From: a virus
Strand: one strand, 5' to 3'
Length of the DNA stretch: 64,000 nucleotides
Virus record (IMG/VR): IMGVR_UViG_3300045988_174111
Coordinates: 1 to 64,000 of that record
Position 1 is the stretch's first letter. The number at the start of each line of letters is the position of its first letter. The notes beneath the pieces were generated by a model. It was given only the letters and a program-made list of their open reading frames with translations, was not told the origin of the DNA and did not search any database. A program made the position numbers and the translations under genes. Shown here one piece after another: positions 24,886-61,885 of this stretch.

Positions 24886-24920
24886 CGCCCGAAAACCATA
24901 TCTGTTCTAATTTTCGGGCG
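24886..24920 (-). terminator. Hairpin terminator after the RNR gene
   Basis: CGCCCGAAAA (24886-24895) pairs with TTTTCGGGCG (24911-24920). A T-run follows on the minus strand. Confidence 0.6.
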
Positions 24921-44408: not shown

Positions 44409-45821
44409 TTAATTTGCTTTTTTCTTGTTTCGCATTTCGCGAATACGTTCAATTGCACTTTTGCCTGAAGAGCTTCCCGCATCACTAGGGGGATTTACAC
44501 CCGCAGGAGCTTCTGGTTCAGGCTCTGGCTCTGGGTCTGGGTCATCATCCGTTGTTCCTTCGGCCTCTTCGTCGACACCATCCCATCCAGGAACGTGTTC
44601 AATATCATAGCCAAGGTCTTCATGTTTTAAAGCCAACTGGTAAGCTTCTTCAAGCTCTTCGCCCTCAAGTTCCAAAGCTTCATAGCCATCTCCATACTGA
44701 CGAATAAATTCTTCATTGACCACTTTCAATTTGTCTTCCGGAGTAGGTTCAGCAGCCTTTTTCTTTGTTACAGCCTTTTTCGCCGGAGTCTTGGCAGCTG
44801 GCATAGGTTTTCTAGCAGCTTGCGGTTCCGGAGCTTTTTCTTCTTCCTTGTTCGGGTCAAAAGGTAAATCATCATCCCCAGACGGTGAATCACCTGCTTT
44901 CTCTTCTACCATACCTTGAAGTTCTTCAACCATGTCGAGGAAATCATCCTGTGCGAAAATCTTGTAGGAGTTTGCATCATCAAAACGCTTCAGACCGTCA
45001 AGGGCGAGGTCAAAATCGCGTTTTGTGTACGAATTAACATACAGTTTTTGAAGACTGGGCAAACCTTCCAATTCTTCAAGAATTTTATCAGGTACAGCAT
45101 TTTTTTCAAAATAGTCATCCCAAGTCTGGCCCATTTTCAATGGCAACGACTTAATAGTTTCAACAGTCTTGTTATTGTCGTCTTTTCCGCGACTCCATTG
45201 AATAGGGAAGCCCGTTGTCGGGTCGGAAAACATATCAATCGCTGCAGTATCGTTTTGGGCACACAAATCAGCAGACTCCTTATTCAAGGCTTCCATCTGT
45301 TTTGGTTTCAGGCTGTCACGCCAAATCTTACCCTCAATCAGCGCATAATATACATATTCCAACTGGGGGCGAATTCCTGGAACCCAAGTTCCGTTTTTCC
45401 CACCCATACGATACCCCGTGATAGGATTCAGGAATCGAGCACGTTCATCTTTGTCCTGGATTTGTTCCGCCTGTTCATATACTCTCTTGATGTACTCTTC
45501 GATGATATCGAACGGATAACCGCCATGAAGCGTCGCAAGGAAAATTTTCTTATTAGCAATTTTCTTCCCAGTTACTTTTCCGTCCTTGTCCTTTTCATCG
45601 ACTTCGCATTTCAGCATAGCTGTCAGCATAGGAACATACGGACTATCTCCTGGCTCATGTGCCGGAAGAACACGCTTAATGGTGATACCGTCTTTCTGTT
45701 TCCAAAACTGAGCATAGTCCCCTTTTTGACCATAATAAGTGTCATACTGTTTAGTTTGCTGAACTGTGTCGCTTACTGTAGAAAGTGGCGCGGCTTTCCA
45801 TTTACTTCTGTCTAATGCCAT
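44409..45821 (-). CDS. Hypothetical protein with P/A/K-rich linker and acidic PE-repeat tail (possible ssDNA-binding role)
   Basis: 470-aa ORF. C-terminus DDDPDPEPEPEPEAPAG plus a basic end. Lies between the recombination genes and the replisome. The SSB idea rests on context only. Confidence 0.6.
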   Translation of the reverse strand: MALDRSKWKAAPLSTVSDTVQQTKQYDTYYGQKGDYAQFWKQKDGITIKRVLPAHEPGDSPYVPMLTAMLKCEVDEKDKDGKVTGKKIANKKIFLATLHGGYPFDIIEEYIKRVYEQAEQIQDKDERARFLNPITGYRMGGKNGTWVPGIRPQLEYVYYALIEGKIWRDSLKPKQMEALNKESADLCAQNDTAAIDMFSDPTTGFPIQWSRGKDDNNKTVETIKSLPLKMGQTWDDYFEKNAVPDKILEELEGLPSLQKLYVNSYTKRDFDLALDGLKRFDDANSYKIFAQDDFLDMVEELQGMVEEKAGDSPSGDDDLPFDPNKEEEKAPEPQAARKPMPAAKTPAKKAVTKKKAAEPTPEDKLKVVNEEFIRQYGDGYEALELEGEELEEAYQLALKHEDLGYDIEHVPGWDGVDEEAEGTTDDDPDPEPEPEPEAPAGVNPPSDAGSSSGKSAIERIREMRNKKKAN

Positions 45822-46815: not shown

Positions 46816-49800
46816 TTATAACGTCAAAGTCACTATATTCGTTTCGAAATTCGCTCTTAAAATATTTGAATCCTTACGATTATCGTATGACAAACAACCA
46901 TTTATAATAATTAAGTTCGAGCGGCTTCCCTCTAAAAGAGATGCCAATTGCTCATATTCCTGTTGAAATATAATGACTTCTAAGAATTCGTAATTTGCCT
47001 CTAAAATCAATCTGCACATAGTGTCACCTTTCCGAGTCTTTTTAATTTCCATATCGGAAACATAACCCGACACAACGACATATCCATTGTTAGGGCGGGA
47101 ATCCGTATCATTACAGTCTTCTACATTCGCAAATTCATAGGCATCCGGGAATTCTGACTTGAATCTTTCAAAGATTTGTTGATAGTCAAAGAAGGCCAAT
47201 CCTGAAACTTGTTTTTGTAGCAAAGCCCACCACCAAGAATCATTTGCGTGTAAATCCGCTCCTGACAGTACAGGGTCGTCGTCTTTTACTTCTGCTTTAA
47301 CCCCTACTAAAAAGTCAACAAGCAAATCAATTCGCTTAGAAATATCAGTAATGCCTTCTAATTTGTCAAATGCCCCTGCCAAAATTAAATTTCGAATAAT
47401 TCTATTATTCACAGCAGAACCTTTCCATTTGTGCCTTGTAATAAAATCATTCAAAGACCAATACTGGCCATTTTCTTTGCGTTCCTTAATAATTTGAGTC
47501 GCGGCTTTTTCTGCGACTTGTTTTACCCCAGTAATTGACCAATATAACGCCTTTTCTTCGAAATTAATCACTACGTCAACATCGGAAACATTAATGTCAA
47601 CTGGGCGAACTGTGCAAACGCCTGTCTTATTTATTTCTGCAATGTATCTTGAGTAATCTGTGTCCAAAGCATATTTAAACGCAACTGACCAATACTCAAT
47701 AGGATAGTGAACCTTTATCCATTGTGAAATATAGCCTGTAATCGCATAGGCAGCAGCGTGGCTTCGGTTGAACAGGTACGTCGAAGCCTTATCAATAGCG
47801 TCCCACACCTTTTCAGAGTATTCCTGGGTGACGTTATAGTTGTCCCGATAGTAAGGGATAAACCGTTCTTTATACTGCTGGAGAGCCTCGTATTTCTTCT
47901 TTACCATCGCTTTACGAACATCATCGGCTTCCACCAATGACAGCCCACCCAACTCACGACAAAGTTGCATGATTTGTTCTTGGTAGCAATTATGGACAAT
48001 TATTCCTCCAACTGTGAAACTATGAATATTTTCGACAGAGATATCATAGACCACCCTCTCCTCATCGTGTACAACTTCCTTCACCCTCCCCCACATATAA
48101 TTCGTAGGAGATTTTCTTGAAATTTTCTTTTTAGAAAGCATTCGATACGGTAAACAATAAAACAAATCTTTCCAAGAAACTGTCAATTTATTCAATCGGG
48201 GGAAAATAGAAGAATGAATCTGATAAGACTGTAAAGCAAAATATATGTCCTCAAGAAGAGAATTATTGCACATCTTCAAAGTATCATTTTTCAGGCACCC
48301 ATCGCCCTCTAATACCCCAGCAATCATATCCAAAGAATAATTACTTGGCAACCTTTTTTCATAGCAATTCTTCAGATAAAGTCCATATTTTTTCAAAAGA
48401 CTATTAAATTTGTTTTCTTGATAATTTTTACTAAAAAATCCATTCGATTTTCCTGAAACAGCTTTAACAGTCACTCTGATAGATTTACCAACATTTCCAG
48501 ATTTTTTCACCTGTGAACGTTCTTTTATTGTAACCTCAAAATCAGAATCTAATTCAAGTAACAATTCCCTTAATCTATTTGCAATTTCAAGATTTGAAAC
48601 TGTAAAATATGGAGAAGAATGCGTCGAAGTTCCTTCCGCAATAAAATACCCAATTAACCAATGCTCAAGTTTTTCCCTCTCCGTCAAGGAGTCAATTCTT
48701 ACAGGCTTTTCAAACCAACATTTTAGTTCATCATTTTTAACAAGATTCTGAGCCTCCACCCATCCACGTTTTGTTAAAATTTTATGGTCTGGAGTACAAA
48801 CAAGTTCCCTCCCAAAGTTAGAACGGACTCTAACTGTTTTCTTAACTCCATTATTTTTTAATAACAAAACTTTCTGAAAAGACCCGTCTTCAGTTTTAAC
48901 CATATCCCCAGGAATAATATCCTGGATTTTCTTAATTCCATTAAGAGTCAAAACTTCAGAATTTTCCGCAATACAGAAAACCCCATAAGTGTTATTAAGA
49001 ATCGATTCCGTTCCAACGAAATATTCTATCTCTTTCTTTCCTTCTTTTCTGACCACAAACTCATTGTGGAAGTTGTTCTCCATTGCTCCCGGACGATACA
49101 AAGAAATCGCTGCAATAAGGTCTTCAATATTATCAGGTTTCATTTGCTTACAATACCCTGTCAGCCCAGAACTTCCGAAGTGAAAATTATCTTCATTCCA
49201 CCCATTCTTAAAGTATCGATATACCTCCTTGTCATCCAAAGGAATACTGAAAATATCCAAGTCCACACCTTCGTGTTCCTTAACTAAACGAACCATATCT
49301 TGGAATTTGTCAAACTGTTTCACTCCAAGAACGTCTTCCTTTAGGAAACCTGCAGCATCCATTTCACCGCCTTCCCATTCAGTCACATATTCATCACCGC
49401 TCTTTCGAATAGGAACCCACCTAAACATGTCATTTTCATCCGGGAATACCATCATTGCACAAGCATGTATTGACTGAGCTTTAGGCGCAGGCATAATAAG
49501 CATTACTTCATTGATAAGGTCTGGGTGGCTCTTAACAAAATTCTTCACTTTCGAATTGGCACATGCAATTTTGAATAAATCTTCAGGTTTTCTGTCTTTA
49601 ACATCAAAAGCCTTCATCATCTCATTCGTAGACTGGAAATCTAGCCCATAAACTCTGGCCATATCCTTAATCGCAGCTCTTAGCTGAAGAGCACTATATG
49701 TTCCGACTGAACAAACCTGATTCCACCCGTATCGTTCTTCCATGTATTTCTTGACACGAGGACGGTCTTCCCCAGGATAGTCACAGTCAATATCAGGAAG

Positions 49801-51282
49801 AGATACCTTAACACGACCTGCATTCAAGAAACGTTCAAAAAGTAGATTATACCTCATCGGGTCTAACTTCGTAATTCCAAGAAGATAGGAAACAAGACAG
49901 CCCCCAGCAGAACCACGGCTGATTCCAGTCATTATCCCATTTCTGTGACACCAATTAATAATATCCCACGTAATTAAGAAATAATCAATTGCATCACCCA
50001 ATTTGATAACCCCTACTTCTCGGTCTATTCGCTCCATAATAACCTCTTCACCCCAATCCTCAATGAGGTCTGGGTGACGGTCAAGCCCATCCGATATAAG
50101 AGACCAAAAGAGGTCTTCATTCGTTTCAAATTTCTTGGCTTCTTCTTTTGTCATTTTATAACGCGGTAAATGTCTTTTTTTAACGTCAATGACAAAAGTA
50201 ATAGATTCGGCAATACTTTCAAGAAATTCCAAACCTTCTGTGAACCTTGAATAGACATCCATAAGGCCTTCATCTGTGTCTGGAAACATCTGTGAAAGCT
50301 CTGTAAATAATTGGTCGTTTGATTTGAAATATTGATTATCACTTTCGTATGCCGTTGTCCCTCCAATACTATGTAGGCGAGGCCTTATACAACTGTATTC
50401 TTCATCCAAATACCAAGCATCAACCGACGGAACAGGTAGCAAATTTCTATCCATGAAGAACTTTTTCAAGTTCTTCAAATACCATTCGTCCCTACTGTTA
50501 TCAACATATTCACATGGGTCAAGCTGATAGATAGCAGCATCCAAATTTAAACTTGATAAAACATCATAATCTAAGGTTTTGGGGTCCAGAAACAAAATCA
50601 AATCATCATTATCTCTCGTAATTTGATTAAAATCTTGAAGGCCAATGTATTTTGGATTGTCACAGTTTATGAACTTATTTATCGTCAAAAGGTCTTTCCA
50701 CCCCTTATCATTTCTTGCATACACTTTTACTGTGAATCTAATATCTCTTGGCTGGTCATATACGGTGCATTCCATCCCAATTATACTTTTCAGGCCGTTC
50801 TTTTGACATTCTGCCTGAAACTTCAAAGAACCAGCTAGCGAATTCTTTTCACAAATCCCTAAAGTGTTAACTCCAAGAAATTTAGCTTTTTTACACCAAT
50901 CAGAATACGTCCCGGAACCAGACATCATCTCATATTGGCCATGAACCCCAAGAAATACTTTAGTTTCAAATTCTTGTTTTGCAGCTCCAATATACTTCAA
51001 TCGTGTCAACTTGACATCATTTTCTTGCCCTTTTGACAACATGTAATACACCCCTCCAAATCGGTAAGCATAGAAGTCACAGTTTGTCTCAACTGTTCCA
51101 TCTTCAGCCCCACGATTGGGGTCAGCAGGAATTCCAACAAAATTGAAACTGTCATCAAACATCGCTCCGTCAAAGGCTTCTTTATACAGCTCAAAAGTCT
51201 TGCCGCCAATTTCAACTATATAGTCGGATAATTGTGTATAATCAAGTAAATTTTTTTCAAGGTATTCTTTAAATCTTTTCAT
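46816..51282 (-). CDS. dnaE: DNA polymerase III alpha subunit (DnaE-type), intein-containing
   Basis: PHP domain (LGVHGQYEMMSGSG...), palm PDIDCDYPGEDR, ISRGSAGG. The extein restores TYGVF-CYQEQIMQL (the YQEQxM motif). Confidence 0.9.
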   Translation of the reverse strand: MKRFKEYLEKNLLDYTQLSDYIVEIGGKTFELYKEAFDGAMFDDSFNFVGIPADPNRGAEDGTVETNCDFYAYRFGGVYYMLSKGQENDVKLTRLKYIGAAKQEFETKVFLGVHGQYEMMSGSGTYSDWCKKAKFLGVNTLGICEKNSLAGSLKFQAECQKNGLKSIIGMECTVYDQPRDIRFTVKVYARNDKGWKDLLTINKFINCDNPKYIGLQDFNQITRDNDDLILFLDPKTLDYDVLSSLNLDAAIYQLDPCEYVDNSRDEWYLKNLKKFFMDRNLLPVPSVDAWYLDEEYSCIRPRLHSIGGTTAYESDNQYFKSNDQLFTELSQMFPDTDEGLMDVYSRFTEGLEFLESIAESITFVIDVKKRHLPRYKMTKEEAKKFETNEDLFWSLISDGLDRHPDLIEDWGEEVIMERIDREVGVIKLGDAIDYFLITWDIINWCHRNGIMTGISRGSAGGCLVSYLLGITKLDPMRYNLLFERFLNAGRVKVSLPDIDCDYPGEDRPRVKKYMEERYGWNQVCSVGTYSALQLRAAIKDMARVYGLDFQSTNEMMKAFDVKDRKPEDLFKIACANSKVKNFVKSHPDLINEVMLIMPAPKAQSIHACAMMVFPDENDMFRWVPIRKSGDEYVTEWEGGEMDAAGFLKEDVLGVKQFDKFQDMVRLVKEHEGVDLDIFSIPLDDKEVYRYFKNGWNEDNFHFGSSGLTGYCKQMKPDNIEDLIAAISLYRPGAMENNFHNEFVVRKEGKKEIEYFVGTESILNNTYGVFCIAENSEVLTLNGIKKIQDIIPGDMVKTEDGSFQKVLLLKNNGVKKTVRVRSNFGRELVCTPDHKILTKRGWVEAQNLVKNDELKCWFEKPVRIDSLTEREKLEHWLIGYFIAEGTSTHSSPYFTVSNLEIANRLRELLLELDSDFEVTIKERSQVKKSGNVGKSIRVTVKAVSGKSNGFFSKNYQENKFNSLLKKYGLYLKNCYEKRLPSNYSLDMIAGVLEGDGCLKNDTLKMCNNSLLEDIYFALQSYQIHSSIFPRLNKLTVSWKDLFYCLPYRMLSKKKISRKSPTNYMWGRVKEVVHDEERVVYDISVENIHSFTVGGIIVHNCYQEQIMQLCRELGGLSLVEADDVRKAMVKKKYEALQQYKERFIPYYRDNYNVTQEYSEKVWDAIDKASTYLFNRSHAAAYAITGYISQWIKVHYPIEYWSVAFKYALDTDYSRYIAEINKTGVCTVRPVDINVSDVDVVINFEEKALYWSITGVKQVAEKAATQIIKERKENGQYWSLNDFITRHKWKGSAVNNRIIRNLILAGAFDKLEGITDISKRIDLLVDFLVGVKAEVKDDDPVLSGADLHANDSWWWALLQKQVSGLAFFDYQQIFERFKSEFPDAYEFANVEDCNDTDSRPNNGYVVVSGYVSDMEIKKTRKGDTMCRLILEANYEFLEVIIFQQEYEQLASLLEGSRSNLIIINGCLSYDNRKDSNILRANFETNIVTLTL
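47989..48975 (-). mobile_element. Intein (329 aa) with LAGLIDADG endonuclease, in DnaE next to the YQEQ motif
   Basis: Begins CIAENSEVLTLNG, has block B TPDH, ends GGIIVHN followed by +1 Cys. LAGLIDADG blocks WLIGYFIAEGT and MIAGVLEGDGC. Confidence 0.9.
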
Positions 51283-51916
51283 GTCTTAATTCCTTTTTAA
51301 CAAGCTCAGTTATATTTTCACCATCTTTACATCCAAGTGAAAGAAAAGTTTGAGCAAACTTTTCACTTACATGTGAATTTATTTCGTAGGAATCAGAATG
51401 ATAATCACAAAAAATTATCTCAACTTCTTTCCCGCATGAAGCCGAAAGCCTAAAAATTGCCTGAGCTTCAATAGGAAATCTAAGAGAACCAAAAACAACA
51501 TCACACGCTGCTGATTCCTCGATTGTCATTTTAGACAAACGATTCGTAATATCATTGACAGTCCATCTTGCCCAAATATCTTCTCCAGCTATCTTCTTCA
51601 AATATTCGCCTGTATTTTGCAATATTTCACGGCCGGATACAAACGAAAAATCAGGAACTATTGAATTCCCAGAAGTTGGGAGCATAATGTTTTGTTTCAG
51701 TTCTTTCCATTTTGCATAAACCGTTCCATCTAACTGAATACCTCTGTCACGTCCTGTGAAAGTATTCATAAGCGTTTGACGAATTCCCTCGCTGAAATCC
51801 CCTATAATAATCGAACGATTTTCTGAATCGGCCTTTGCTCTTAAAAATTCTGCACGATAAGACTTCCCGGAGCCAATAACCCCAACAAGCCCATAAATCT
51901 TTCCTTTATGGTTCAT
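51269..51916 (-). CDS. P-loop kinase, dNMP-kinase-like (putative)
   Basis: Walker A GLVGVIGSGKSY at the N-terminus. Small size and nucleotide-metabolism context. Confidence 0.45.
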   Translation of the reverse strand: MNHKGKIYGLVGVIGSGKSYRAEFLRAKADSENRSIIIGDFSEGIRQTLMNTFTGRDRGIQLDGTVYAKWKELKQNIMLPTSGNSIVPDFSFVSGREILQNTGEYLKKIAGEDIWARWTVNDITNRLSKMTIEESAACDVVFGSLRFPIEAQAIFRLSASCGKEVEIIFCDYHSDSYEINSHVSEKFAQTFLSLGCKDGENITELVKKELRHEKI

Positions 51917-52445
51917 ACTGTAACATAAATTTTTGAATACTTGTAAAAAGTTCCCAGTCCTTTGAATACTTTTTCATCAGATTCTCACAGTTTTCAATAC
52001 ACTGTAATAATTTCTTAGACGAGTTCCCAAGGGCACATTCGTTTTTACAGAAAATCCACAAATCTAAATAATCACATGTCTTAAATAGGCGATACTGTAA
52101 ATCAGACATTAAAGACTTAATCTCAGAATCAGAATATGGTGCCAAAACTGTATCTCCATGACAAATCTCATATTCAATGATATCCCACGCGGAAGAAGTA
52201 TTTTCATTAAATTTCTTCACGCACGCATTAAGGTCGCCAGTAACACTTTCGACAAAATCATGAAGCAATACTTTGTCAAATACATTAATGTCGTAGGATA
52301 CGTCTTCTTCGGAAGCAAACCAACGAAATAACATACCTACTACGAGGCCATGCTCCAAGAGATTGTACCCCCTGTGGTGGGGGGTATTTGGCAATCTCTG
52401 GATATCTTTCATTCCTAAAAGGATGTCAATTTTTTTGTAATTCAT
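51906..52445 (-). CDS. HD-domain phosphohydrolase (5'-deoxynucleotidase-like)
   Basis: H...HD...D pattern: LLEHGLVVGML...VLLHDFVESVTGD. Confidence 0.55.
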   Translation of the reverse strand: MNYKKIDILLGMKDIQRLPNTPHHRGYNLLEHGLVVGMLFRWFASEEDVSYDINVFDKVLLHDFVESVTGDLNACVKKFNENTSSAWDIIEYEICHGDTVLAPYSDSEIKSLMSDLQYRLFKTCDYLDLWIFCKNECALGNSSKKLLQCIENCENLMKKYSKDWELFTSIQKFMLQYEP

Positions 52446-52465
52446 GCTATATTTATTTTAGTGAA

Positions 52466-53578
52466 CTATCCAATAAATAATTCATTCAACAACGGGTTTT
52501 TAAACTCGATAGGCTGTTTTGTCCAATAACGATAAATTATTTTACCCCAATCGGAAAATAAACCTTTAAAAAATCCAAGTTCTTCAAGTAAATCTTCCTT
52601 CTTTAAGCCTGCACGACACATCTCTTCAAATTGAGATAATTCCCCTATCCAGTAGTCGAACTCCTCTAATGTTTTAAACGTTGCATCGTATGTAAAGTTT
52701 ATTCCGGAAGAATATAAATTCGGGTCTCTTTTAGCTATTTCTTCGACCATAGGAATAAAATCCTTATAGACGTGAAGATTATCTACCTTATGGTAATATT
52801 TTCCGACAGGCACGCCCACTATTGCCGCAACATATTCCTGCATCAATGTAAAGTTAAATACATTCACTGCGCTAAACCCCCATATCAGGTCATTCGAACG
52901 CATATCAACATAACAGTTCATCTTCCCATCGACAACCATAAAATGAATTGAACGTGTGCAAGGAGTATCCTTTGTTTCCAAGATAGCTGCCTTTTCTGAA
53001 CCGCCTTCTTCATTTTGATAATGAGCATTAAAATTGTCAGAAATAGGGTCGTGAATCGTAATAACCGCTTCACGAGTGTCAATATCCTGTTTGAATTTTT
53101 CAATCACAAAGCGTAATTGGTCAGTAACATTTTGGTATGGAGCTGGCCGTTTCAACTTTGTTTGGCGACCGTTATCGTCTGCTTTTCCGTTCTTATACTG
53201 ACGTGGAAGGAGTTGTCCGGACAATGTTACCATCGACTCAAAATTATCGCCGTAACGACGTATTCGAGGCCCATACCCAGCTCTCATAAATTTACCATCA
53301 TCAGAAAAGTTCAACAAATTCTTTACATAGCTTGCAGGCATTTCCAAACTGTTATCTCCACGAGCAAGCCACAAACTTTCAATCCATCCTAATGTTTTGT
53401 TCCATTTACGTTCCGGAATACGAACGTAACGGTCAGTTGGATTTGAAATTTCAATCAAAACTGCCCCAGGAAATTCTCTACATTGAAAGCCTCTTCTTGT
53501 AACATCAATTCCTCTTTCAACTAGCCCCCGACTTAATAGGATGAGGGCACTACTTAAATTTTCTGCTTGAAAAAACAT
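52466..53578 (-). CDS. Thymidylate synthase (ThyA)-fold enzyme, candidate pyrimidine hydroxymethylase
   Basis: Catalytic Cys context TPCTRSIHFMVVDGKMNCYVDMRSNDLIWGFSAVNVFNF aligns by eye with ThyA PCH..QF.V...LSC.LYQRS.D..LG.PFNIASY. It is ~100 aa longer than canonical ThyA. Confidence 0.7.
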   Translation of the reverse strand: MFFQAENLSSALILLSRGLVERGIDVTRRGFQCREFPGAVLIEISNPTDRYVRIPERKWNKTLGWIESLWLARGDNSLEMPASYVKNLLNFSDDGKFMRAGYGPRIRRYGDNFESMVTLSGQLLPRQYKNGKADDNGRQTKLKRPAPYQNVTDQLRFVIEKFKQDIDTREAVITIHDPISDNFNAHYQNEEGGSEKAAILETKDTPCTRSIHFMVVDGKMNCYVDMRSNDLIWGFSAVNVFNFTLMQEYVAAIVGVPVGKYYHKVDNLHVYKDFIPMVEEIAKRDPNLYSSGINFTYDATFKTLEEFDYWIGELSQFEEMCRAGLKKEDLLEELGFFKGLFSDWGKIIYRYWTKQPIEFKNPLLNELFIG

Positions 53579-53591
53579 ATCTCTAAATTAT

Positions 53592-54635
53592 TTATTCAAC
53601 AATAAATTCTCCTGGCTTAGGAAGAACCGCATTCCATTTAGGAGGAAAGACAAAATTAATCTCCTTGGAGCTTTTTTCATACGTGTGTTTGATTCTTTCA
53701 TTGCGCCCTTTATTGAAGGAAGCACCAAGCCCCTTGGCAAACTTACTTGTCTCACAGAAACAGTTTTGCAAATTTGTTAAAGTCGGAACAGGTTCCCAAG
53801 GTAAGGGATTCCATTTCATACCGCTTTCTTTGCAAAATTTATTCATCAATTCTTCGAAATTTTCGTGAACCCATTTAATTACTCCCACATAATCATAACG
53901 TTTCCCGGACGCTCCTTCAAATGTCCACCCGATTCCTTTTAAAGACCCTGGACCAGTAATGACAAAATCATTTTCCGAAAAATTAAACAAAGGGGAATAA
54001 TTCAAGTCGATGCAATACTGTTGTGCAGTAAAGTCCCCGTATATTTTCATTTTTCGAAATACCCAATACAATTCTTCAAAAGACTTTGCCTCCAGAAAAT
54101 CATACAAATGACCATTCTGAAATATTTCATCTTCGAAGATACGAAAATGCGCCCGATGCTTACTCATCCCCGTGATATGCTTGTATTCGGGGTATTGATA
54201 AAAGAAGCAATTAACGATATACGCATTCCCATAAATTGTATCACCACTTTCAATTACTTCATCTAAGAACTTAGCAATATTTTCTAGCCCTACTTCGTAG
54301 GTAATATCACCAAATTCTTTTTCAAGCAAGTCCCAAGTTTCGTTTTTGTTGAAATGCTTAAAAAGCAATATGCGAAAGAACATATCTTCTGGCTCATACT
54401 GTTTTCCGTTGTAAATTACACGACTCAACAGGTATTGGCTCACACGGTCAAGGCATCTATAAACATTCGTAAACTTGAATCTCCGAAGTATTTCATCGTC
54501 TGTCCATGGTCCAACCTGTCCATTGTACTTCTTCCAGAAGATATTCATTCTTTCGCATATCCAATACAAAAACCAATTAAATGTTTCTAATGGGACTGGA
54601 ATAAACTCATTTTCCTTTCTTTTTCCCATTTTCAA
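53592..54635 (-). CDS. Helical protein, possibly related to 5-hmdU-kinase helical domain or aGPT-pyrophosphorylase families (DNA base hypermodification)
   Basis: Motif PWTDDEILRRFKFTNVYRCLDRVSQYL is recalled from 'DNA base hypermodification' proteins. This rests on context and memory only. Confidence 0.4.
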   Translation of the reverse strand: MKMGKRKENEFIPVPLETFNWFLYWICERMNIFWKKYNGQVGPWTDDEILRRFKFTNVYRCLDRVSQYLLSRVIYNGKQYEPEDMFFRILLFKHFNKNETWDLLEKEFGDITYEVGLENIAKFLDEVIESGDTIYGNAYIVNCFFYQYPEYKHITGMSKHRAHFRIFEDEIFQNGHLYDFLEAKSFEELYWVFRKMKIYGDFTAQQYCIDLNYSPLFNFSENDFVITGPGSLKGIGWTFEGASGKRYDYVGVIKWVHENFEELMNKFCKESGMKWNPLPWEPVPTLTNLQNCFCETSKFAKGLGASFNKGRNERIKHTYEKSSKEINFVFPPKWNAVLPKPGEFIVE

Positions 54636-55353
54636 ATGTTTTAAACGAATTTCTGTCTATATAATCTGATTTTTTACAAAAAGCAATAAATTCATCACAC
54701 AACTCAGAAAGTTCGAAAAATTTTAAAATGTGGACACCTAAATCCCACACTGGAGAATCATAGGGTTGGTCATGTAAAACCACATTCCCTCCGGCATCGT
54801 TCACTTCTTTTCTCTCTCTTTGAGCCTTTTCAAAATCGTGAAGGAAAGTACGGTGCTTTCTCCACATGCAATCCCCCTTTGGAGGCTCGCCAGAGCGATA
54901 TGTTATCCGAGCACAGTATTCATCCCACTGGTCATCACGATAATCGTAGCGAACGTGAAGAATGTTTGAAAAACCTGAACTCTCACACAAACTCAAAGGA
55001 CGCAATCTCCAAGAAACTGTCGTACCTGCCCCATCAATTAGAACTCCATGACCTGCCTTCGAAACTTCTTCTAGGAAGAAGGAAAGCCCCTCAGCCTTGC
55101 AAAGTCTTGAAGTCATGCTATCATACCCCTGCCAACGACGAACTCCCCCGTTCTCGTAAAACTTTCCCACAAAAACCATATTAAAGTCAGGTGAATAAAC
55201 CCCAACTTCCTTTTCCTTTCCGTCAAGAGTTTTGAACTTATACGGGAGAAGTTCCATCCCTAAGGATTCTAAAAATTCCAGGAAGAGGTAAACCCTTGTG
55301 GACTTACCACTTCCAGAAATTCCTTTTACTAAAACTATAGATTCACCGTCCAT
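54607..55353 (-). CDS. P-loop NTPase/kinase-like protein
   Basis: Walker A VLVKGISGSGKSTRV at the N-terminus. Overlaps the downstream helical-protein gene by 29 nt. Confidence 0.5.
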   Translation of the reverse strand: MDGESIVLVKGISGSGKSTRVYLFLEFLESLGMELLPYKFKTLDGKEKEVGVYSPDFNMVFVGKFYENGGVRRWQGYDSMTSRLCKAEGLSFFLEEVSKAGHGVLIDGAGTTVSWRLRPLSLCESSGFSNILHVRYDYRDDQWDEYCARITYRSGEPPKGDCMWRKHRTFLHDFEKAQRERKEVNDAGGNVVLHDQPYDSPVWDLGVHILKFFELSELCDEFIAFCKKSDYIDRNSFKTFENGKKKGK

Positions 55354-55356
55354 TTG

Positions 55357-56040
55357 TTATTTCTTTTTCGGCGTTTTCTTTGCAGGCGCAGATTGAGTAT
55401 CCTCAGCCAGTTCCAACGCTGTTGCGCGTTTCTTCACAGGCTTATCATCACCAAACTTAACCATACATTTTTCTTTTCCATCGCCGGACTGATATAAACG
55501 AACAACTTCGCCAACAGTGCTGGAACCTTTCAACGTTACTTTTGAGCCAACTTTCAGTCCTGGAACCTCTGTTGATTCTTCAAGATTCTGTCGTTTTGTT
55601 TCACGCGATTTTTCAGATTTTCCGGCCTTGGCACCCTCTCTCATTGATTTGTCTGACTTAGAAGGGGTCTTTCTTTCTTTCTGACGCTTGTCATATTCTT
55701 TTTCAGCAGCGGCAAGACGGGCTTCTTCTTCTTCGGTAAGCTTTTCTTCGGACTGATAATTCGAATTGCGTTTGTTCTGACGCTTCATAGCTGCTTCTGG
55801 TGAACCATCACCGTCTTCATCTTCAGACTCTTTTTCTTCCTCTTTCTTTACCGGAGCCTTCTTCGGAGCCTTTTTAGGAGCTTCCTTCTTTTCTTCCGCT
55901 TCACCGCCCATTTTTTCCAAAAATTCCTGAGCAATTTTTACTTCCAATTCGGTTGATTCCTCATTGTTAACAATTTCTTCCAACTGTTCTTTCGAAAATT
56001 TTCTGTACTTCATGCGAAGTGCTAATGCATTGTTTGCCAT
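55357..56040 (-). CDS. Highly charged K/E-rich protein with C-terminal small beta-barrel-like segment
   Basis: Low-complexity KKEAPKKAPKKAPVKKEEEKESEDEDGD. C-terminus LKVGSKVTLKGSSTVGEVVRLYQSGDGKEKCMVKF. Confidence 0.6.
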   Translation of the reverse strand: MANNALALRMKYRKFSKEQLEEIVNNEESTELEVKIAQEFLEKMGGEAEEKKEAPKKAPKKAPVKKEEEKESEDEDGDGSPEAAMKRQNKRNSNYQSEEKLTEEEEARLAAAEKEYDKRQKERKTPSKSDKSMREGAKAGKSEKSRETKRQNLEESTEVPGLKVGSKVTLKGSSTVGEVVRLYQSGDGKEKCMVKFGDDKPVKKRATALELAEDTQSAPAKKTPKKK

Positions 56041-56101
56041 AATCGTTTTTCTTTTTTGGTTAAAATTCTATTTTAGAAATAAATTATCACTTATCTCGGT
56101 A

Positions 56102-56109
56102 CAAATATA
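56102..56109 (-). promoter_or_regulatory. -7 box TATATTTG (no clear -33)
   Basis: Exact TAnnTTTG in the GGTACAAATATAAC context, 62 nt upstream of the ATG at 56040. Confidence 0.4.
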
Positions 56110-56156
56110 ACGTAAATAATTCGAATCCTAATGATTTTTCTCAATAAAAATCGAAA

Positions 56157-56606
56157 TTATTTTGTTCCAGTATGGCCAAATCCTCCAGTTCCTCTTTCTG
56201 TATCAGTAAGTTCTTCGACTGAAGAAACTTCGACAACTTCCTCGACTTTTGCATAGGGGGCAAAGACAATTTGGGCAATTCTGTCACCATTCTCAATAGT
56301 TTGTGGTTCTGTCGACAGGTTAATCAACGGAACACCTACTTCCCCACGATAGTCAGCGTCAATGGTTCCAGGAGCATTGATTACGGTCAGACCCTGTTTA
56401 ACAGCGCAACCGCTGCGAGGTCTCACCTGACCCTCGTACCCCTGTTCGATTTCCATATACAAACCAGTAGGGATGATTTTACGCTCCATCGGAGCCAATG
56501 TGATTGAACCCTCGGGAAGATAGGCACGCAAGTCCATACCCGAACTGTCTGGAGTTTTGTACTCCGGCAGAGCATTTGTGCTCTTGTTTACGATTCTTAA
56601 TTTCAT
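56157..56606 (-). CDS. dut: dUTPase (trimeric Dut)
   Basis: SSGMDLRA, RPRSGCAVKQGL, GTIDADYRGEV, GDRIAQIVF, RGTGGFGHTG (the five Dut motifs). Confidence 0.92.
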   Translation of the reverse strand: MKLRIVNKSTNALPEYKTPDSSGMDLRAYLPEGSITLAPMERKIIPTGLYMEIEQGYEGQVRPRSGCAVKQGLTVINAPGTIDADYRGEVGVPLINLSTEPQTIENGDRIAQIVFAPYAKVEEVVEVSSVEELTDTERGTGGFGHTGTK

Positions 56607-57127: not shown

Positions 57128-58180
57128 TCAAATTTTTATTTCCACTTTATTATAAAAGAAGCTAATTGGGTCGACCGCACCCCTCAAAACTTCTTCGAGA
57201 TATTCCAAATCAATGTTTCCAGGGTCTATTCCTGGCTTCCTAATCGCTGTCACGTACACACGGTCAAACAGTTCCTTCATCTTTAATGCCGACTCTTTGC
57301 TCTCGTTTATAGTTCCAAAATCGTACAGAAGTATGACGTTCTTGATACCTTTCTTGAGCATCATGTTAATCTGTCCTTGACCGATATTATTCCCGAACGT
57401 GAAGCAACACTTAATGTCGTCAAGATGTTGAAGTCCTAAGAGGTTGTCGATATTCACTTTGTCAAAGATGCCCTCAACGATTATGACCGTTTCAGTCTTC
57501 CCCTCTATCAACTCATCGCAACCCCCTAACAGGTCTTGAAAGTTGTTCTCGGAGTTCCTGTAACGTAACACCAAGTCAGCCTCGTGACGCTTGTATGCCT
57601 CAAGATTTTCTTTGTGCCATTCCTTTGAATACCTACTTCTAGCCCACCATGCTACGCACACGCCATCGACTTTCATCTTAAAAATAATGAAATTCTTTAA
57701 TTTTGGCTCTAAGGGGGTATCAGTGTAGGAAGGCTCAAATTCCTCATAATGTTCTTTTTTAAATCCGCGACTGTCCAAATAGGGGTCGTCAACCAACGGC
57801 TTAATTCTTAATGGGAGAACAACAGGCTTTAATTCCTGCTTTGCTTCAGATTCATCAGAATCCATCCATTTTGAATGTTCAACCTGAAGCTCGCCAATTT
57901 TGGGGCAGTCCTCTAATTCATTTAATTTAACTGAATAAGAACGTTTCGTAAGGTCGAGCCTTCCGAGTTTCTTTAAAAATTCAAAAACAGAAACTTTTCT
58001 TGGGCATTTCCAACAGTGGAACGTCGCCCTTCCGTCTTGATTAAATATCACCCCCCATTTTCCCATTTTACCACAAAAGGGGCATGGCATATCCTTATTC
58101 GTCAGCCACCCTTGAGCTCCAAAAGGGGATAAATTAAATTCTGAAATTATACGTTCCTTATCGTACCTCATGTCTATCAA
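57128..58180 (-). CDS. dnaG: DNA primase (zinc-finger + TOPRIM)
   Basis: Zn ribbon CPFCG...CWKCPRK. TOPRIM VIIVEGIFDKV and ILLYDFG. Confidence 0.75.
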   Translation of the reverse strand: MIDMRYDKERIISEFNLSPFGAQGWLTNKDMPCPFCGKMGKWGVIFNQDGRATFHCWKCPRKVSVFEFLKKLGRLDLTKRSYSVKLNELEDCPKIGELQVEHSKWMDSDESEAKQELKPVVLPLRIKPLVDDPYLDSRGFKKEHYEEFEPSYTDTPLEPKLKNFIIFKMKVDGVCVAWWARSRYSKEWHKENLEAYKRHEADLVLRYRNSENNFQDLLGGCDELIEGKTETVIIVEGIFDKVNIDNLLGLQHLDDIKCCFTFGNNIGQGQINMMLKKGIKNVILLYDFGTINESKESALKMKELFDRVYVTAIRKPGIDPGNIDLEYLEEVLRGAVDPISFFYNKVEIKI

Positions 58181-59784: not shown

Positions 59785-61884
59785 TTATACTGCATCAACT
59801 TTAATCATTAAGGTGCTTTCTCTTAATCTATTAATTGCCATAAAAGAAGAGGAAACCGTATCATCATGCCCACTAATACTTTCGAGAGTTCCCTTGTCAC
59901 TTCTAAATGCAATAGAATTAAATTCTCCAAACATTTGGTCTATTTTTTGAGAAGTGTCCGGATGATAAGGGCATTTAATAGCTCCTCTCTCAAATAACGC
60001 TGCAAGTGACGCCCATCCAGTTCTCAAGTCCTTTTTATTTCCCGAAGTAGTAGTGAACGGAGTAATATTTCTAATGCCCATTTGAACGCACATGTCCGCC
60101 AAAATATTTTGAAACCCATTGTTCTCAACGACAATTTCATTTGGCTTAAATGTTTGATTCAGCAAATTTATCTTCTGAATTTGTTCATTATGAGACAGCC
60201 CCTTTTCTCGGAAAATATACAAAAGATAATAATTTCCTTGGATGTCTTTCCCCCAAACCGTGTAACAGGTATAATCGGCACCAACGTTACCAGATACGGC
60301 AAAGTCACAACCAATAACAACTCTTTGAAGCTTAATAGGAAAAGACTCTATATTCTCAACGAGCCTGACATTTTCCATACCGATTGTGCTTCTCTTTAGT
60401 ATCTCCCAAGGGAAAATCGTACTGTCGTCAGATATAGGTACAACCAAATATTCTCGAGAAAATACGAGAGTCCCAAGAGATGCTTTTTCTTCCATAAGTT
60501 TCTTCCATGTAAAACGGTCTGGAGCTAATAGACGCCCGTCCGGGAAAATTGCTGGGTATTCAAAAACTTTGAATTTGGGGTCTTTTTTAAGTTCCGCGTA
60601 TAAGTCCTCTTGCTGATATGGGGTTCCATCTACAATATTGTATCCATACGGCTCAACGATAGGGGTGATTGCTCCTTTAAACAGGTCTCTAAGTTTTTCT
60701 CTTTGTTCCAAGGAATAAATACTACTTTCGTCCGGCAAGTCATCACTCACTGCCGCCCCAACATGAAGCCCTCGAATAAACCCGTCCTTTCCGCGCAAAT
60801 GAAGCTTCGTTCCATTTTCGCATTCTATACTAGTTGCGGCCAAAGAAGCCTTTCCAGTAGGATTCAACTTTGCTGCTAAAGCCTCGTTTACTCGAATTTC
60901 CTCAACAACTTTGTCAATGTGCTGTTTACCCAGCTTCTCCGTGTTGGTGATAATACAGGTTTCCTGACGATTCTTATTATCGGGAATGTCAGGTCTCATA
61001 AACGTTGGTCGTCTATAACTGTACAACCTCCACAATGGAAATGCCATGCAAAACTCATAAGAGTTGTGAACAACGGTTCCGTCTTCCAACTGGAATATAT
61101 GGTCTCCGTCGCACATAAAACCATAATAGGATTCTTCCCCTATGGGTTCAACACGTATATTCCCTCTTTCGAAGACAGGCTTATCGTAGGAAAAAACCCT
61201 ATACCCCTGGAATCTTCTTTGTTTCTTCACAGGATACTTCAAGAATTGCCCCATCTCAATTTCAACATATTTTTTCTTCTTTGTATCCCACAGGCATAAA
61301 ATGTGCGCTCGATTTACAGCATAAGGCATTCCATTTTCCTGTTCGACTCTGAACATCTGTGAACGCCCAATATGACGTGTCAAAACTTTTCTCGGGGTAA
61401 AATCAACGCCCATCACCTCCATTCCTGGATAAATGTCCTCAACATTTTTCACCGAAAAATCTGACATTAAAATTCTTGTCCCCCTCGCAAAACATTTTCC
61501 GTGGGAACGGGCAGCAAGATAAGCACTATTCGGATAGAGCTGTACCATGTTTCCCCACTCAAGATTTCTCCACCCCTGACGGAAGTTCGGAAGCATTGTC
61601 GTCTTGAAATAATTATAGGACTGAATTTTTAAAGTTTCATCCATAGACTCTTCTAATTGGTCTATATAATCAAGACGTTCTGTTTCTAAAGTTGAATTTA
61701 ACGTCAGTACATTATTTGTTTGGATAAAAATTTCTGATAAAAGGGAATCAATATCGCCTGAATATCCGTTAACTAGCTGATTTATTGCAACTGGCGGCAA
61801 AGACTCTATCACATTAAATGCGGTAGAAAAAACTGTATCAAGCTGCTTATATGACAATTTTGAATCTTCATTAAAATGTATCAT
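59785..61884 (-). CDS. terL: Terminase large subunit, mini-intein-containing
   Basis: The extein restores Walker A AARSHGK-SYEF. Nuclease-domain motifs VIGCDFAVSG..ADYT, IVVENNG, GHDDTVSS. Start taken at MIHFNED (ATG 61882-61884), 1 nt after the upstream stop. Confidence 0.8.
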   Translation of the reverse strand: MIHFNEDSKLSYKQLDTVFSTAFNVIESLPPVAINQLVNGYSGDIDSLLSEIFIQTNNVLTLNSTLETERLDYIDQLEESMDETLKIQSYNYFKTTMLPNFRQGWRNLEWGNMVQLYPNSAYLAARSHGKCFARGTRILMSDFSVKNVEDIYPGMEVMGVDFTPRKVLTRHIGRSQMFRVEQENGMPYAVNRAHILCLWDTKKKKYVEIEMGQFLKYPVKKQRRFQGYRVFSYDKPVFERGNIRVEPIGEESYYGFMCDGDHIFQLEDGTVVHNSYEFCMAFPLWRLYSYRRPTFMRPDIPDNKNRQETCIITNTEKLGKQHIDKVVEEIRVNEALAAKLNPTGKASLAATSIECENGTKLHLRGKDGFIRGLHVGAAVSDDLPDESSIYSLEQREKLRDLFKGAITPIVEPYGYNIVDGTPYQQEDLYAELKKDPKFKVFEYPAIFPDGRLLAPDRFTWKKLMEEKASLGTLVFSREYLVVPISDDSTIFPWEILKRSTIGMENVRLVENIESFPIKLQRVVIGCDFAVSGNVGADYTCYTVWGKDIQGNYYLLYIFREKGLSHNEQIQKINLLNQTFKPNEIVVENNGFQNILADMCVQMGIRNITPFTTTSGNKKDLRTGWASLAALFERGAIKCPYHPDTSQKIDQMFGEFNSIAFRSDKGTLESISGHDDTVSSSFMAINRLRESTLMIKVDAV
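61063..61494 (-). mobile_element. Mini-intein (144 aa, no endonuclease domain) in the terminase Walker A motif
   Basis: Begins CFARGTRILMSDF and ends DGTVVHN followed by +1 Ser. The Hint-domain-only length leaves no room for a homing endonuclease. Confidence 0.85.
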
Positions 61885-61885
61885 A

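Follow-up and report, generated by a model that had tools for sequence, protein, structure and literature searches.

A new, conserved and minimal form of a predicted thymidine-hypermodification cassette beside a phage dnaE gene

Introduction

In all reconstituted pathways of thymine hypermodification in phage DNA, an amino-acid:DNA transferase (AADT, or aGPT-Pplase2) is needed. The locus described here, from a phage with a genome of approximately 104 kb, carries genes of the 5-hmdU DNA kinase and PF18723 families but none for an AADT, and raises the question of how hydroxymethyluracil (hmU), once phosphorylated in the polymer, would be processed further. The cassette was seen in a 64,000-nt stretch of this genome, hereafter the window.

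The host is probably a member of the gut Bacteroidales. Judged by gene set, the window resembles the 'Gratiaviridae', a proposed family of gut Bacteroides phages (Benler 2021). Common to both are a DnaE polymerase, a primase-like gene, SF1 and SF2 helicases, RecA, an Mre11/SbcD-like phosphoesterase with a long coiled-coil protein, a DPS-like ferritin and a contractile tail, as well as signs of a Bacteroidales host and a DnaE that in the window is nearest to that of Cellulophaga phiST. Genes for hydroxymethyluracil or hypermodification are not mentioned in the description of that family (Benler 2021).

Results

The cassette consists of seven ORFs, all on the minus strand, which run from 56606 down to 51269 and encode proteins of 149, 227, 248, 347, 370, 179 and 215 aa. 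The family matches given below are much stronger than chance would produce. The packing of the ORFs is operon-like, with spacings of -14, -11, +20, +13, -29, +3, +116, +23 and +6 nt from DnaE towards a primase-like gene (57128-58180) that had no family match. An earlier note, made from the sequence alone, had placed seven minus-strand genes at just these coordinates, and the motifs it had listed (GISGSGKST, PWTDDEILRRFKFTNVYRCLDRVS, TPCTRS and SAVN) were all found in the translations. It had also remarked that DHFR, PLP, radical-SAM and glycosyltransferase genes were not visible in the window; Pfam scans of nearly all window ORFs of at least about 120 aa likewise found none of these domains.

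The first gene encodes a dUTPase (56157-56606, minus strand; PF00692, E 3e-28; phrog_135, E 4e-60) and heads the cassette in nearly all related loci. The enzyme is predicted to remove dUTP and supply dUMP, and it may have a side activity as a dTTPase. The 370-aa protein (52466-53578, minus strand) has the thymidylate synthase fold (PF00303, E 1.6e-17), and the earlier note had suggested that it might be a hydroxymethylase. This suggestion held, since the protein groups with hydroxymethylases rather than with thymidylate synthases. Its best phage matches are from the Maribacter phages Colly and Molly, SPO1 (gp29), phage G and the M6-like 'dUMP hydroxymethyltransferase', and in PDB the CMP hydroxymethylase MilA ranks first (5e-20, versus 1e-9 for ThyA), whereas all NCBIfam thymidylate-synthase equivalogs scored far under their cut-offs. 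It retains Cys207, Arg227, Ser228 and Asp230, and an Asn lies nine residues past Asp230, as in SPO1 gp29, with which it is 32% identical. The protein is indeed longer than canonical ThyA, as had been noted, but the extra length is shared with SPO1 gp29 (383 aa). We predict from these sequence features that it is a dUMP hydroxymethylase of the SPO1 gp29 type, making 5-hmdUMP.

Downstream of the hydroxymethylase gene, in most related loci as here, is the gene for an HD-domain protein (51906-52445, minus strand; 179 aa). The HD phosphohydrolase assignment of the earlier note was borne out by a match to the YfbR-like 5'-deoxynucleotidases (PF12917, E 2.6e-13; 50.5 bits against a cut-off of 25.9); the score against the NCBIfam 5'-deoxynucleotidase model was under its cut-off. 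The protein is probably a dTMP/dNMP nucleotidase that would deplete the thymidine nucleotide pool. The last gene (51269-51916, minus strand; 215 aa), which follows the HD gene and precedes dnaE in related loci too, encodes a P-loop protein that had been described as dNMP-kinase-like. A match to phrog_139 'deoxynucleoside monophosphate kinase' (E 4e-11) agrees weakly with this description; there was no match in Pfam, NCBIfam or PDB, and it is the weakest call of the cassette. Its putative role is that of a 5-hmdUMP kinase. The cassette end is overlapped by 14 nt by the start of a DnaE-type replicative polymerase with an intein (46816-51282, minus strand; PHP, DNA_pol3_alpha, finger, intein and HHH_6 domains), the nearest relatives of which are the DnaE proteins of Tenacibaculum, Cellulophaga phiST and Chryseobacterium phages. 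Incorporation of 5-hmdUTP would fall to this polymerase.

The remaining genes would act on the polymer. The 248-aa P-loop protein (54607-55353, minus strand) belongs to PF18747, HMUD2 or '5-hmdU DNA kinase 2' (E 6e-21; 75 bits, cut-off 25). Over residues 4-226 it is 24% identical to MAM_011 of phiMAM1 (E 6e-18), a homologue of ViI gp243, which is a demonstrated 5-hmdU DNA kinase in vitro (Lee 2021). Its Walker A residues are invariant among 53 relatives. By homology, the kinase would act on hmU within polymeric DNA, adding a phosphate to the 5-hydroxymethyl group to yield 5-phosphomethyl-dU (5-PmdU). Upstream of it lies the gene for a K/E-rich protein (55357-56040, minus strand; 227 aa) with no family in Pfam, PHROGs or NCBIfam. 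This gene is co-inherited with the kinase: it was present in the HMUD2-bearing loci of the close clade wherever the contig covers that part, and was not found in glycosyltransferase-type or AADT-type loci. In one locus (L015), its slot is taken by a gene for a 392-aa Rho_N-domain protein.

The 347-aa protein (53592-54635, minus strand) is a member of PF18723, HMUDK_hel (E 8e-76; 255 bits, cut-off 25), a family named aG/PT-PPlase1 by Lee 2018. The ORF starts at TTG; gene callers chose an ATG two codons in, which shortens the protein to 345 aa and the overlap with the kinase gene to 23 nt. The earlier note had linked both this protein and the kinase to hypermodification, the former by way of helical families, and HMM searches confirmed both links, with the kinase aligning over its full length to the ViI gp243 homologue. 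The 347-aa protein is of the same family as ViI gp160 (via its homologue in Shigella phage Ag3) and the C-terminal half of SP10 gp186, to residues 314-636 of which it aligns (E 1e-21). PF18723 is present in all four of the model hypermodifying phages SP10, PhiW-14, ViI and M6; Lee 2018 found it absent from SPO1, T4 and lambda.

An AlphaFold2 model of the 347-aa protein is all-alpha (pLDDT 91.8) and matched SP10 gp186 (TM 0.72) and a PF18723-domain protein of PhiW-14 in BFVD. It contains an HhH-like GPGxxxG hairpin and an invariant Cys294-Glu295-x-x-Lys298. Cys294, Glu295, Lys298, the hairpin (G228xG230xxxG234), Arg29, Arg60, Asp63 and Asp210 are all invariant, both among relatives whose identity ranges from 35% to 91% and in remote phage members. 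The model resembles HhH DNA glycosylases weakly, and AADT-domain proteins at the level of the fold (probability 0.97-0.99, TM 0.38-0.51); AADT enzymes have a Cys beside a Glu/Thr metal site. At the profile level, no homology of PF18723 to AADT was detected (hhalign probability 0.2%), the motifs differ (C-E-T-x-K in PF18723 versus E-[ST]-x2-3-C in AADT), and a Foldseek search of the model against PDB missed the solved AADT structures 8Z2M and 8Z2N.

No AADT gene was found in the window or in either 10-kb flank (20 kb in total). The remaining approximately 20 kb of the genome, which separate the tail genes from the major capsid gene, were judged solely via relatives, with 53-86% identity in the proteins by which these were found; in the relatives the region is structural, and no AADT was found there. 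Sensitive searches with two AADT types as queries gave nothing above 10 bits. AADT was likewise missing from approximately 45 loci of the close clade, in which the kinase and PF18723 genes are intact, while in more distant relatives an AADT gene sits between these two. The reduced or novel enzyme set that the earlier note had raised as a possibility is borne out by this distribution. In other relatives glycosyltransferases take the place of the kinase, and one of these is fused to PF18723. Across a single lineage of phages, the genes for PF18723, hydroxymethylase, HD protein, dNMP kinase and DnaE are constant and the gene upstream of PF18723 varies, the variants being HMUD2 with the K/E-rich protein, HMUD2 with AADT, and GT1/TAGT with a RIO/APH-like protein. 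PF18723 also occurs in fusions. Its partner is a kinase in SP10 and in many family representatives, at least 12 of the best 150 having a Walker A motif N-terminal to PF18723, and GT1 in L088 and P0241. The LuckyBarnes and phiRSL1 clusters likewise have TAGT-type glycosyltransferases next to PF18723, and no P-loop hmU kinase lies near the glycosyltransferase-paired PF18723 of sister lineages and unrelated phages.

Discussion

From gene content, family membership, conserved residues and gene order, and from the absence of an AADT, we infer the enzymatic activities and the final base as follows. The block would encode a minimal 5-HMUDK-type pathway for thymidine replacement and hypermodification, with PF18723 catalysing the exit from 5-PmdU, a reading to which we give a probability of roughly 45%. 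Going by family membership, dUTPase would supply dUMP, the ThyA-like enzyme would convert it to 5-hmdUMP, the HD nucleotidase would clear dTMP, the dNMP-kinase-like protein would phosphorylate 5-hmdUMP, and the adjoining DnaE would build DNA containing hmU. After replication, the HMUD2 kinase, as a homologue of ViI gp243, would phosphorylate the hmU in the polymer. The least certain step, also at about 45%, is that the PF18723 protein is the catalyst that consumes the phosphorylated base. Its HhH-like hairpin would flip the base out, and Cys294-Glu295 would act as in the structurally related AADTs, with the thiol attacking C6, phosphate leaving and an exocyclic methylene forming as intermediate. 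The product would be either thymine, if the intermediate captures hydride, or a small adduct, if a cellular nucleophile adds to it. As no AADT was found in the phage, PF18723 would be the sole exit from 5-PmdU. In favour of this step are the occurrence of PF18723 in all four model hypermodifying phages, its invariant residues, its fold-level likeness to AADTs and the AADT-free close clade, in which kinase and PF18723 are kept. Against it stand the activity seen in vitro without PF18723, the negative profile comparison with AADT, the differing motif and the Foldseek result, the pairing of PF18723 with glycosyltransferases, the part of the genome judged through relatives, and several ORFans without assignment.

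Rather less probably, the same precursor pathway and kinase operate, and PF18723 is a non-catalytic partner that recognizes hmU-DNA or presents the base to whatever enzyme decorates its hydroxymethyl group. As the kinase would here be the sole effector, 5-PmdU would stay in the virion, probably at a subset of sites. The swapping of the effector gene upstream of PF18723 within a lineage around a constant core, the fusions to kinase or GT1 and the TAGT neighbours all favour such a partner. The pairing and fusion with glycosyltransferases fits a general role in hmU-DNA recognition at least as well. Catalysis also proceeds in vitro without PF18723, M6 gp55 being omissible and the SP10 gp186 kinase domain active alone, and Pfam labels PF18723 as the helical domain of the kinase. 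However, absolute invariance of a Cys-Glu pair is seen more typically in active sites than in binding modules, the papers examined describe 5-PmdU solely as an intermediate and never as a virion base, and the added negative charge would probably be costly in packaged DNA.

It is improbable that an unrecognised transferase, encoded by an ORFan or in the 20-kb part or supplied by the host, makes a conventional amino-acid- or polyamine-type hypermodified thymine. In its favour, AADT families are mutually very divergent (a ViI-type profile hardly recovers M6 gp51 and does not find the PDB entries), relatives were the sole guide to part of the genome, and mid-size ORFs at 4176-5129, 20985-22460, 44409-45821 and 13206-13997, among others, match no library. 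Against this, the AADT slot between kinase and PF18723 is empty here and in the close clade, the sensitive searches were negative, and the 20-kb region is structural in relatives.

Thymidylate synthase, dUTPase and dNMP kinase are carried by many phages. That the locus merely serves ordinary nucleotide metabolism beside the polymerase, with a divergent thymidylate synthase and nucleotide kinases, would agree with this and with the retained ThyA fold and catalytic Cys, but is very improbable given the equivalog scores, the hydroxymethylases as nearest characterised relatives, the very strong PF18747 and PF18723 matches directly upstream, families known only from hmU hypermodification systems, and the same core in the thymine hypermodifiers M6 and SP10.

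The cassette can be set beside characterised pathways. SPO1 follows the same pre-replicative logic (gp29, dUTPase/dTTPase, dTMP nucleotidase and dNMP kinase), but its final base is hmU and it has neither PF18723 nor the DNA kinase, both of which are present in the window. Bacillus phage SP10, which makes alpha-glutamylthymine, has a 5-hmdU DNA kinase fused to PF18723 (gp186) and the ThyA-like gp188; as in the window, the order is kinase then PF18723, with the hydroxymethylase just downstream. The fold of gp186 is shared, and Lee 2018 (Table 3) detected no transferase of clade 2 in SP10 even though this phage makes glutamyl-thymine. In contrast to SP10, kinase and PF18723 are separate genes in the window, the kinase is HMUD2 (PF18747) rather than HMUD1 (PF18748) and has marginal similarity to the gp186 N-terminus (E 6e-4), no radical-SAM gene such as SP10 gp185 is adjacent, and neither the host phylum nor the phage lineage is related. 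Pseudomonas phage M6, which makes 5-(2-aminoethyl)uridine, has the same order of kinase, PF18723 and hydroxymethylase (gp54, gp55 and gp58; gp55 is in the PF18723 family by hhalign, 99.85%). However, the M6 gp51-gp58 cluster includes the product-defining glycine:DNA transferase (an AADT), PLP decarboxylase and radical-SAM isomerase, none of which occurs in the window. In the 5-NeOmdU pathway of Salmonella phage ViI, kinase 2 (gp243) and gp160 are of the same types as the window proteins, whereas the ViI genes are scattered over the genome and include a second kinase (gp67), the serine:DNA transferase gp247 and a PLP decarboxylase.

In the papers examined, no enzyme is named that turns residual 5-hmdU into thymine in SP10, PhiW-14, ViI and M6; this and the SP10 transferase result both speak for a catalytic PF18723. 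The cassette described here is a new, conserved and minimal form of a known system, and its end product could be thymine, an adduct or 5-PmdU.

Layout of the cassette

The earlier note described seven minus-strand open reading frames next to dnaE, and all seven were present at 51269-56606, with the quoted motifs in their translations. The families that it had suggested were now assigned through profile searches (Pfam and PHROGs). Read from upstream to downstream, the genes encode a dUTPase (56157-56606; PF00692, E 3e-28), a K/E-rich protein of 227 aa (55357-56040) for which these searches matched no family, a 248-aa P-loop protein (54607-55353), a 347-aa helical protein (53592-54635), a 370-aa protein of the thymidylate-synthase fold (52466-53578; PF00303, E 1.6e-17), a YfbR-like HD 5'-deoxynucleotidase (51906-52445; PF12917, E 2.6e-13) and a dNMP-kinase-like protein of 215 aa (51269-51916), a weak call made on a PHROGs match alone (E 4e-11). 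The suggestion that the 347-aa and 248-aa proteins belong to hypermodification-linked families was borne out by matches to PF18723 (HMUDK_hel, E 8e-76) and PF18747 (HMUD2 kinase, E 6e-21), respectively.

The cassette has the tight packing of an operon, with overlaps at three junctions (-14, -11 and -29 nt) and short gaps elsewhere, the single sizeable one being 116 nt, 3' of the dUTPase gene. At the DNA level, searching 50,697 phage records with the cassette returned short dUTPase matches only and no near relative. PDB sequence searches with the 347-aa, 248-aa and 215-aa proteins and with the PF18723 profile gave nothing meaningful, and PHROGs yielded no useful match for the mid-size ORFans.

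The 370-aa protein is a predicted dUMP hydroxymethylase

The closest relatives of the 370-aa protein were Maribacter phage enzymes, SPO1 gp29, which is annotated as a dUMP hydroxymethylase in the SPO1 record, a phage G protein, and M6-like "dUMP hydroxymethyltransferases". The genes for the Maribacter phage homologues adjoin glycosyltransferase and sugar-nucleotide genes. Among PDB entries, the best match was the CMP hydroxymethylase MilA (5e-20), while any thymidylate synthase matched at 1e-9 or weaker. All seven curated thymidylate-synthase equivalog models scored far below their cut-offs, the best scores being 57.7 bits (cut-off 174.6) and 44.8 bits (cut-off 108.4).

The protein retains the catalytic Cys and an Arg-Ser-x-Asp motif. 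Nine residues past the Asp of this motif, the 370-aa protein and SPO1 gp29 share an Asn; the aligned residue is Asp in MilA and Asn in E. coli ThyA. We take the base-selecting position to be Asp179 of T4 gp42 and the aligned Asp of MilA, going by the role given to this residue in the literature on ThyA and dCMP hydroxymethylases. From its nearest relatives, the MilA match, the failure of the equivalog models and the placement of the Asn, we read the 370-aa protein as a dUMP hydroxymethylase, with the predicted activity of supplying 5-hmdUMP. A dCMP or CMP hydroxymethylase of the T4 gp42 or MilA type and a plain thymidylate synthase were both rejected, on the grounds of the Asn, the neighbours and the equivalog cut-offs.

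The 248-aa protein is a predicted 5-hmdU DNA kinase

The 248-aa protein matched PF18747 at 75 bits, against a cut-off of 25, and its residues 4-226 aligned (E 6e-18) with phiMAM1 MAM_011, an annotated homologue of ViI Vi01_196/gp243. ViI gp243 puts one phosphate on 5-hmdU in DNA (Lee 2021). The Walker A residues were invariant among 53 relatives. At the level of sequence, the protein is a predicted 5-hmdU DNA kinase. Its gene lies directly upstream of, and overlaps, the PF18723 gene. The possibility that the two are one gene split by a frameshift was rejected, since relatives keep two genes 9 nt apart, each with its own start.

The K/E-rich protein (55357-56040, minus strand) is co-inherited with HMUD2 and is missing from every locus where a glycosyltransferase has replaced this kinase. 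At one related locus (L015), a Rho_N-domain protein occupies its slot.

The 347-aa protein belongs to PF18723 and differs in sequence from AADTs

The PF18723 match of the 347-aa protein scored 255 bits and covered profile positions 3-273 of 281. Other matches to the profile were the homologue of ViI gp160 in Shigella phage Ag3, SP10 gp186 over its C-terminal half, and proteins from the Montesquieu, LuckyBarnes, phiRSL1 and Nodularia phages. M6 gp55 falls in the family as well (hhalign 99.85%), and a PhiW-14 protein joins it by fold, so that all four model phages have PF18723. The memberships of the ViI gp160 homologue, SP10 gp186, M6 gp55 and the PhiW-14 protein identify PF18723 with aG/PT-PPlase1 of Lee 2018. 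The family comprises 4973 representatives at 50% clustering; among the best 150 of these, at least 12 were fusions of a Walker A domain followed by PF18723, and one was a GT1 fusion.

The AlphaFold2 model of the 347-aa protein was all-alpha (pLDDT 91.8). Foldseek against the PDB gave no significant match, the best being HhH DNA glycosylases at E 0.67 and above, and the amino-acid:DNA transferase (AADT) entries 8Z2M and 8Z2N were not returned. Among viral models (BFVD), PF18723 proteins matched strongly and AADT-domain proteins weakly (probability 0.97-0.99, TM 0.38-0.51, E 0.03-0.9). Cys294, Glu295, Lys298, a GPGxxxG hairpin and several Arg and Asp residues were invariant in 59 members of the lineage and in distant phage members. 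The AADT motif E-[ST]-x2-3-C, in which the catalytic Cys comes after a Glu/Thr metal site, was not found in PF18723; the family carries an invariant C294-E295-(T)-x-K298, where the AADTs examined show ES/ET..C. Homology between PF18723 and AADTs was not detected by BLASTP (E 16) or by hhalign (probability 0.2% with ViI-type AADTs, 0.4% with M6 gp51). A near-paralogue relationship was thus ruled out at the sequence and profile level.

No AADT was found with the cassette

In each reconstituted pathway, the phosphate is exchanged for serine, glycine, putrescine or diaminopropane by a clade-2 aGPT-Pplase (AADT, DADT or PUGT), and this amino-acid or diamine:DNA transferase step defines the product in every case. 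Searches with a profile of 12 AADT sequences and with M6 gp51 covered the window, both flanks and structural regions taken from two relatives, which stand in for ~20 kb of this exact genome; no match exceeded 10 bits. None of the ~45 loci of the close clade has an AADT within 10 kb. The earlier note had seen no PLP, radical-SAM or glycosyltransferase genes, and Pfam scans of the window ORFs agreed; neither these scans nor the precomputed Pfam hits of the flanks included a PLP decarboxylase, radical-SAM isomerase, FAD oxidase, acetyltransferase or glycosyltransferase.

The phage also carries a DUF2400/TIGR02757 protein (6120-6857, minus strand; E 1e-63) whose nearest cellular homologues are from Bacteroidales. 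Its AlphaFold2 model (pLDDT 94.7) has a fold of the HhH-glycosylase superfamily, closest to the queuosine-5'-phosphate glycosylase Qng1/DUF2419, OGG1 and MUTYH. We considered it as the missing transferase and rejected it: it lies 45 kb off, has cellular Bacteroidales homologues, and nothing ties it to the cassette.

Partner enzymes are exchanged among related loci

The cassette proteins were used to search 62 related IMG/VR loci, which formed three sets. Approximately 45 loci, with 53-91% identity in PF18723, carry the same block as the window, in the order dUTPase, K/E-rich protein, HMUD2, PF18723, hydroxymethylase, HD protein, dNMP kinase and DnaE. A distant set (35-45% identity) carries, in this order, HMUD2, sometimes a 363-aa protein, a true AADT, PF18723 and the hydroxymethylase, so that the AADT lies inside the cassette. 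One of its AADTs (L017:8857-10038) matched ViI-type AADTs by hhalign with a probability of 100% (E 1.6e-58). At this locus, which has 40% identity in PF18723, the AADT is flanked by proteins of 363 aa (7785-8876) and 252 aa (11110-11868); neither has a Pfam match, and both are candidate extra tailoring enzymes.

The third set (44-58% identity in PF18723) is nested among the close relatives and lacks both HMUD2 and the K/E-rich protein. It carries instead a GT1 glycosyltransferase, a GT1::PF18723 fusion or a TET-associated glycosyltransferase (PF20691), and two genes upstream there is in every case a RIO/APH-like protein of the kinase fold. The fusions are found at L088:8435-10972, at L096 and in protein P0241 (846 and 829 aa), a separate GT1 at L082-85, and the TET-associated enzyme directly upstream of PF18723 at L087 and L103. 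The clusters around PF18723 in LuckyBarnes and phiRSL1 likewise include TAGT-type glycosyltransferases. Comparison of the three sets indicates that PF18723 and the hydroxymethylase form a constant core, with an exchangeable partner enzyme.

The cassette lies in the replication module of a probable Bacteroidales phage

Two samples yielded independent assemblies of the genome, ~104.3-104.5 kb long, in different circular permutations (Logan ERR1110366_206; ENA ERZ28666543 scaffold_45), and the genome is therefore probably complete. In Pfam scans, the window otherwise consisted of a replication and nucleotide-metabolism module, with genes for class II ribonucleotide reductase, UvrD, SNF2, NAD ligase, RecA, RNase H, an Mre11/SbcD-like phosphoesterase, DnaB, a primase-like protein, large terminase subunit, chaperonin, sigma factor and DPS-like ferritin. 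Between them, the two 10-kb flanks contain portal, protease and capsid genes as well as tail and baseplate genes.

In gene content, the phage resembles the gut Bacteroides family "Gratiaviridae" as proposed by Benler 2021, for which DnaE and DnaG primase in a module with SbcCD, RecA and SF1/SF2 helicases, ferritin-like genes and a contractile tail are described. The primase-like gene of the window matched no family. The "Gratiaviridae" paper makes no mention of genes for hydroxymethylation or hypermodification. The window DnaE is nearest to those of Cellulophaga phage phiST and of Tenacibaculum and Chryseobacterium phages. The clade, seen in human-associated samples, probably infects Bacteroidales, and one 90%-identity cluster of its PF18723 protein holds 3796 sequences.

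Several further features of the genome were observed. Inteins or Hint/homing-endonuclease inserts are present in five essential genes of the window, encoding class II ribonucleotide reductase (24932-28252), a UvrD-like helicase (28674-31178), an SNF2 helicase (32124-34853), DnaE (46816-51282) and the large terminase subunit (59785-61956). An intein-less DnaE allele of 1159 aa in another sample (L009) indicates an intein polymorphism of DnaE within the population. A Rep3-type initiator (600-1412, plus strand) sits at the sole strand switch, and the DPS-like ferritin (20119-20604, plus strand), which agrees with the "Gratiaviridae" description, is on the strand opposite to the cassette. Among the phage's genes are also those for a sigma-70/ECF factor of its own (18293-18904, minus strand) and a GroEL-type chaperonin (23241-24899, minus strand). 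A second, small HD-domain protein (38004-38426, minus strand; HD_4, E 2e-6) is distant from the cassette. A 444-aa protein with a NUDIX domain (L012:1736-3070, minus strand) is encoded just beyond the start of the window, with the portal gene and the capsid-protease gene on either side. Nucleotide pyrophosphohydrolases are not usual at such a location, and this one may be packaged or act late.

The cultured Chryseobacterium phage MA9V-3 (L041, PV245944.1 44489-66022), which has a related DnaE, carries 7-deazaguanine genes (queE, folE) and a thyA2 downstream of DnaE rather than an hmU cassette. It appears from this that, across the broad group, differing DNA-modification modules are accommodated in the replication module downstream of dnaE.

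Proposed pathway and the role of PF18723

The pre-replicative half of the cassette corresponds to the standard logic of hmU phages as summarized by Lee 2021. The dUTPase would yield dUMP, which the hydroxymethylase would convert to 5-hmdUMP, while the HD nucleotidase would deplete dTMP. The dNMP kinase would then form the diphosphate, and the adjacent DnaE would incorporate the nucleotide. On the polymer, the HMUD2 kinase would produce 5-phosphomethyl-dU (5-PmdU). We give this reading, up to and including 5-PmdU formation and drawn purely from homology and context, a probability of roughly three in four.

For the step that follows, we tentatively propose, at somewhat less than even odds, that PF18723 itself catalyses the consumption of 5-PmdU, its Cys-Glu pair acting in the manner of AADTs, with thymine or a small adduct as the product. 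The proposal draws on the invariant Cys and the weak fold relationship to AADTs, on frequent fusion to the kinase and retention with it in AADT-less phages, and on two further observations: a clade-2 enzyme was not detected in SP10, and the pathway papers examined assign no enzyme to the hmU-to-thymine step of the model phages.

The main rival, which we judge rather unlikely, is that PF18723 serves as a recognition or base-presenting partner for any hydroxymethyl-decorating enzyme. Such a role would account for the pairings with glycosyltransferases and for the dispensability of the PF18723 protein in vitro in published reconstitutions, and it would make 5-PmdU the final base here. It is doubtful, in our estimate, that the kinase and PF18723 constitute a self-sufficient two-enzyme module and that virions of this widespread clade carry 5-PmdU as a terminal DNA base; the hypermodification papers examined describe 5-PmdU solely as a biosynthetic intermediate. 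If 5-PmdU were terminal, the K/E-rich protein might help to handle the extra charge. We hold it equally possible that PF18723 turns phosphorylated hmU into thymine at the polymer level. A transferase hidden elsewhere in the genome is improbable, since the AADT searches of the window, the flanks and the relatives' structural regions came back empty. Least of all would we read the block, with its predicted DNA kinase, as ordinary nucleotide metabolism.

By three defining parts, the cassette is in the 5-HMUDK class (Lee 2018, 2021); the AADT and tailoring enzymes of that class were not detected in the searches of the window and flanks. It would work like the cores of SP10 and M6. SP10 gp186 fuses PF18748 to PF18723, of which the successive kinase and PF18723 genes of the window are the unfused form, and M6 gp54, gp55 and gp58 follow the same order of kinase, PF18723 and hydroxymethylase. 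What is new is a conserved minimal cassette of kinase and PF18723, with sister lineages that exchange the effector in a modular manner. Worked-out cases of thymidine hypermodification come from a few phages of Pseudomonadota and Bacillus, and a search of open-access text turned up no paper naming these enzymes that concerns Bacteroidota or gut phages.

Hydroxymethylase, predicted DNA kinase and PF18723 are retained in the clade without the transferase, in a conserved form that has been sampled many times. It therefore offers a natural minimal system for the role of PF18723 and for the fate of the remaining hmU, that is, whether this is turned into thymine or is retained in phosphorylated form, and the sister lineages with a glycosyltransferase in place of the kinase provide a comparative handle on the same role. 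If abundant gut phages do carry a modified thymine, this would affect virome work based on restriction or nanopore sequencing, as well as host-range barriers.
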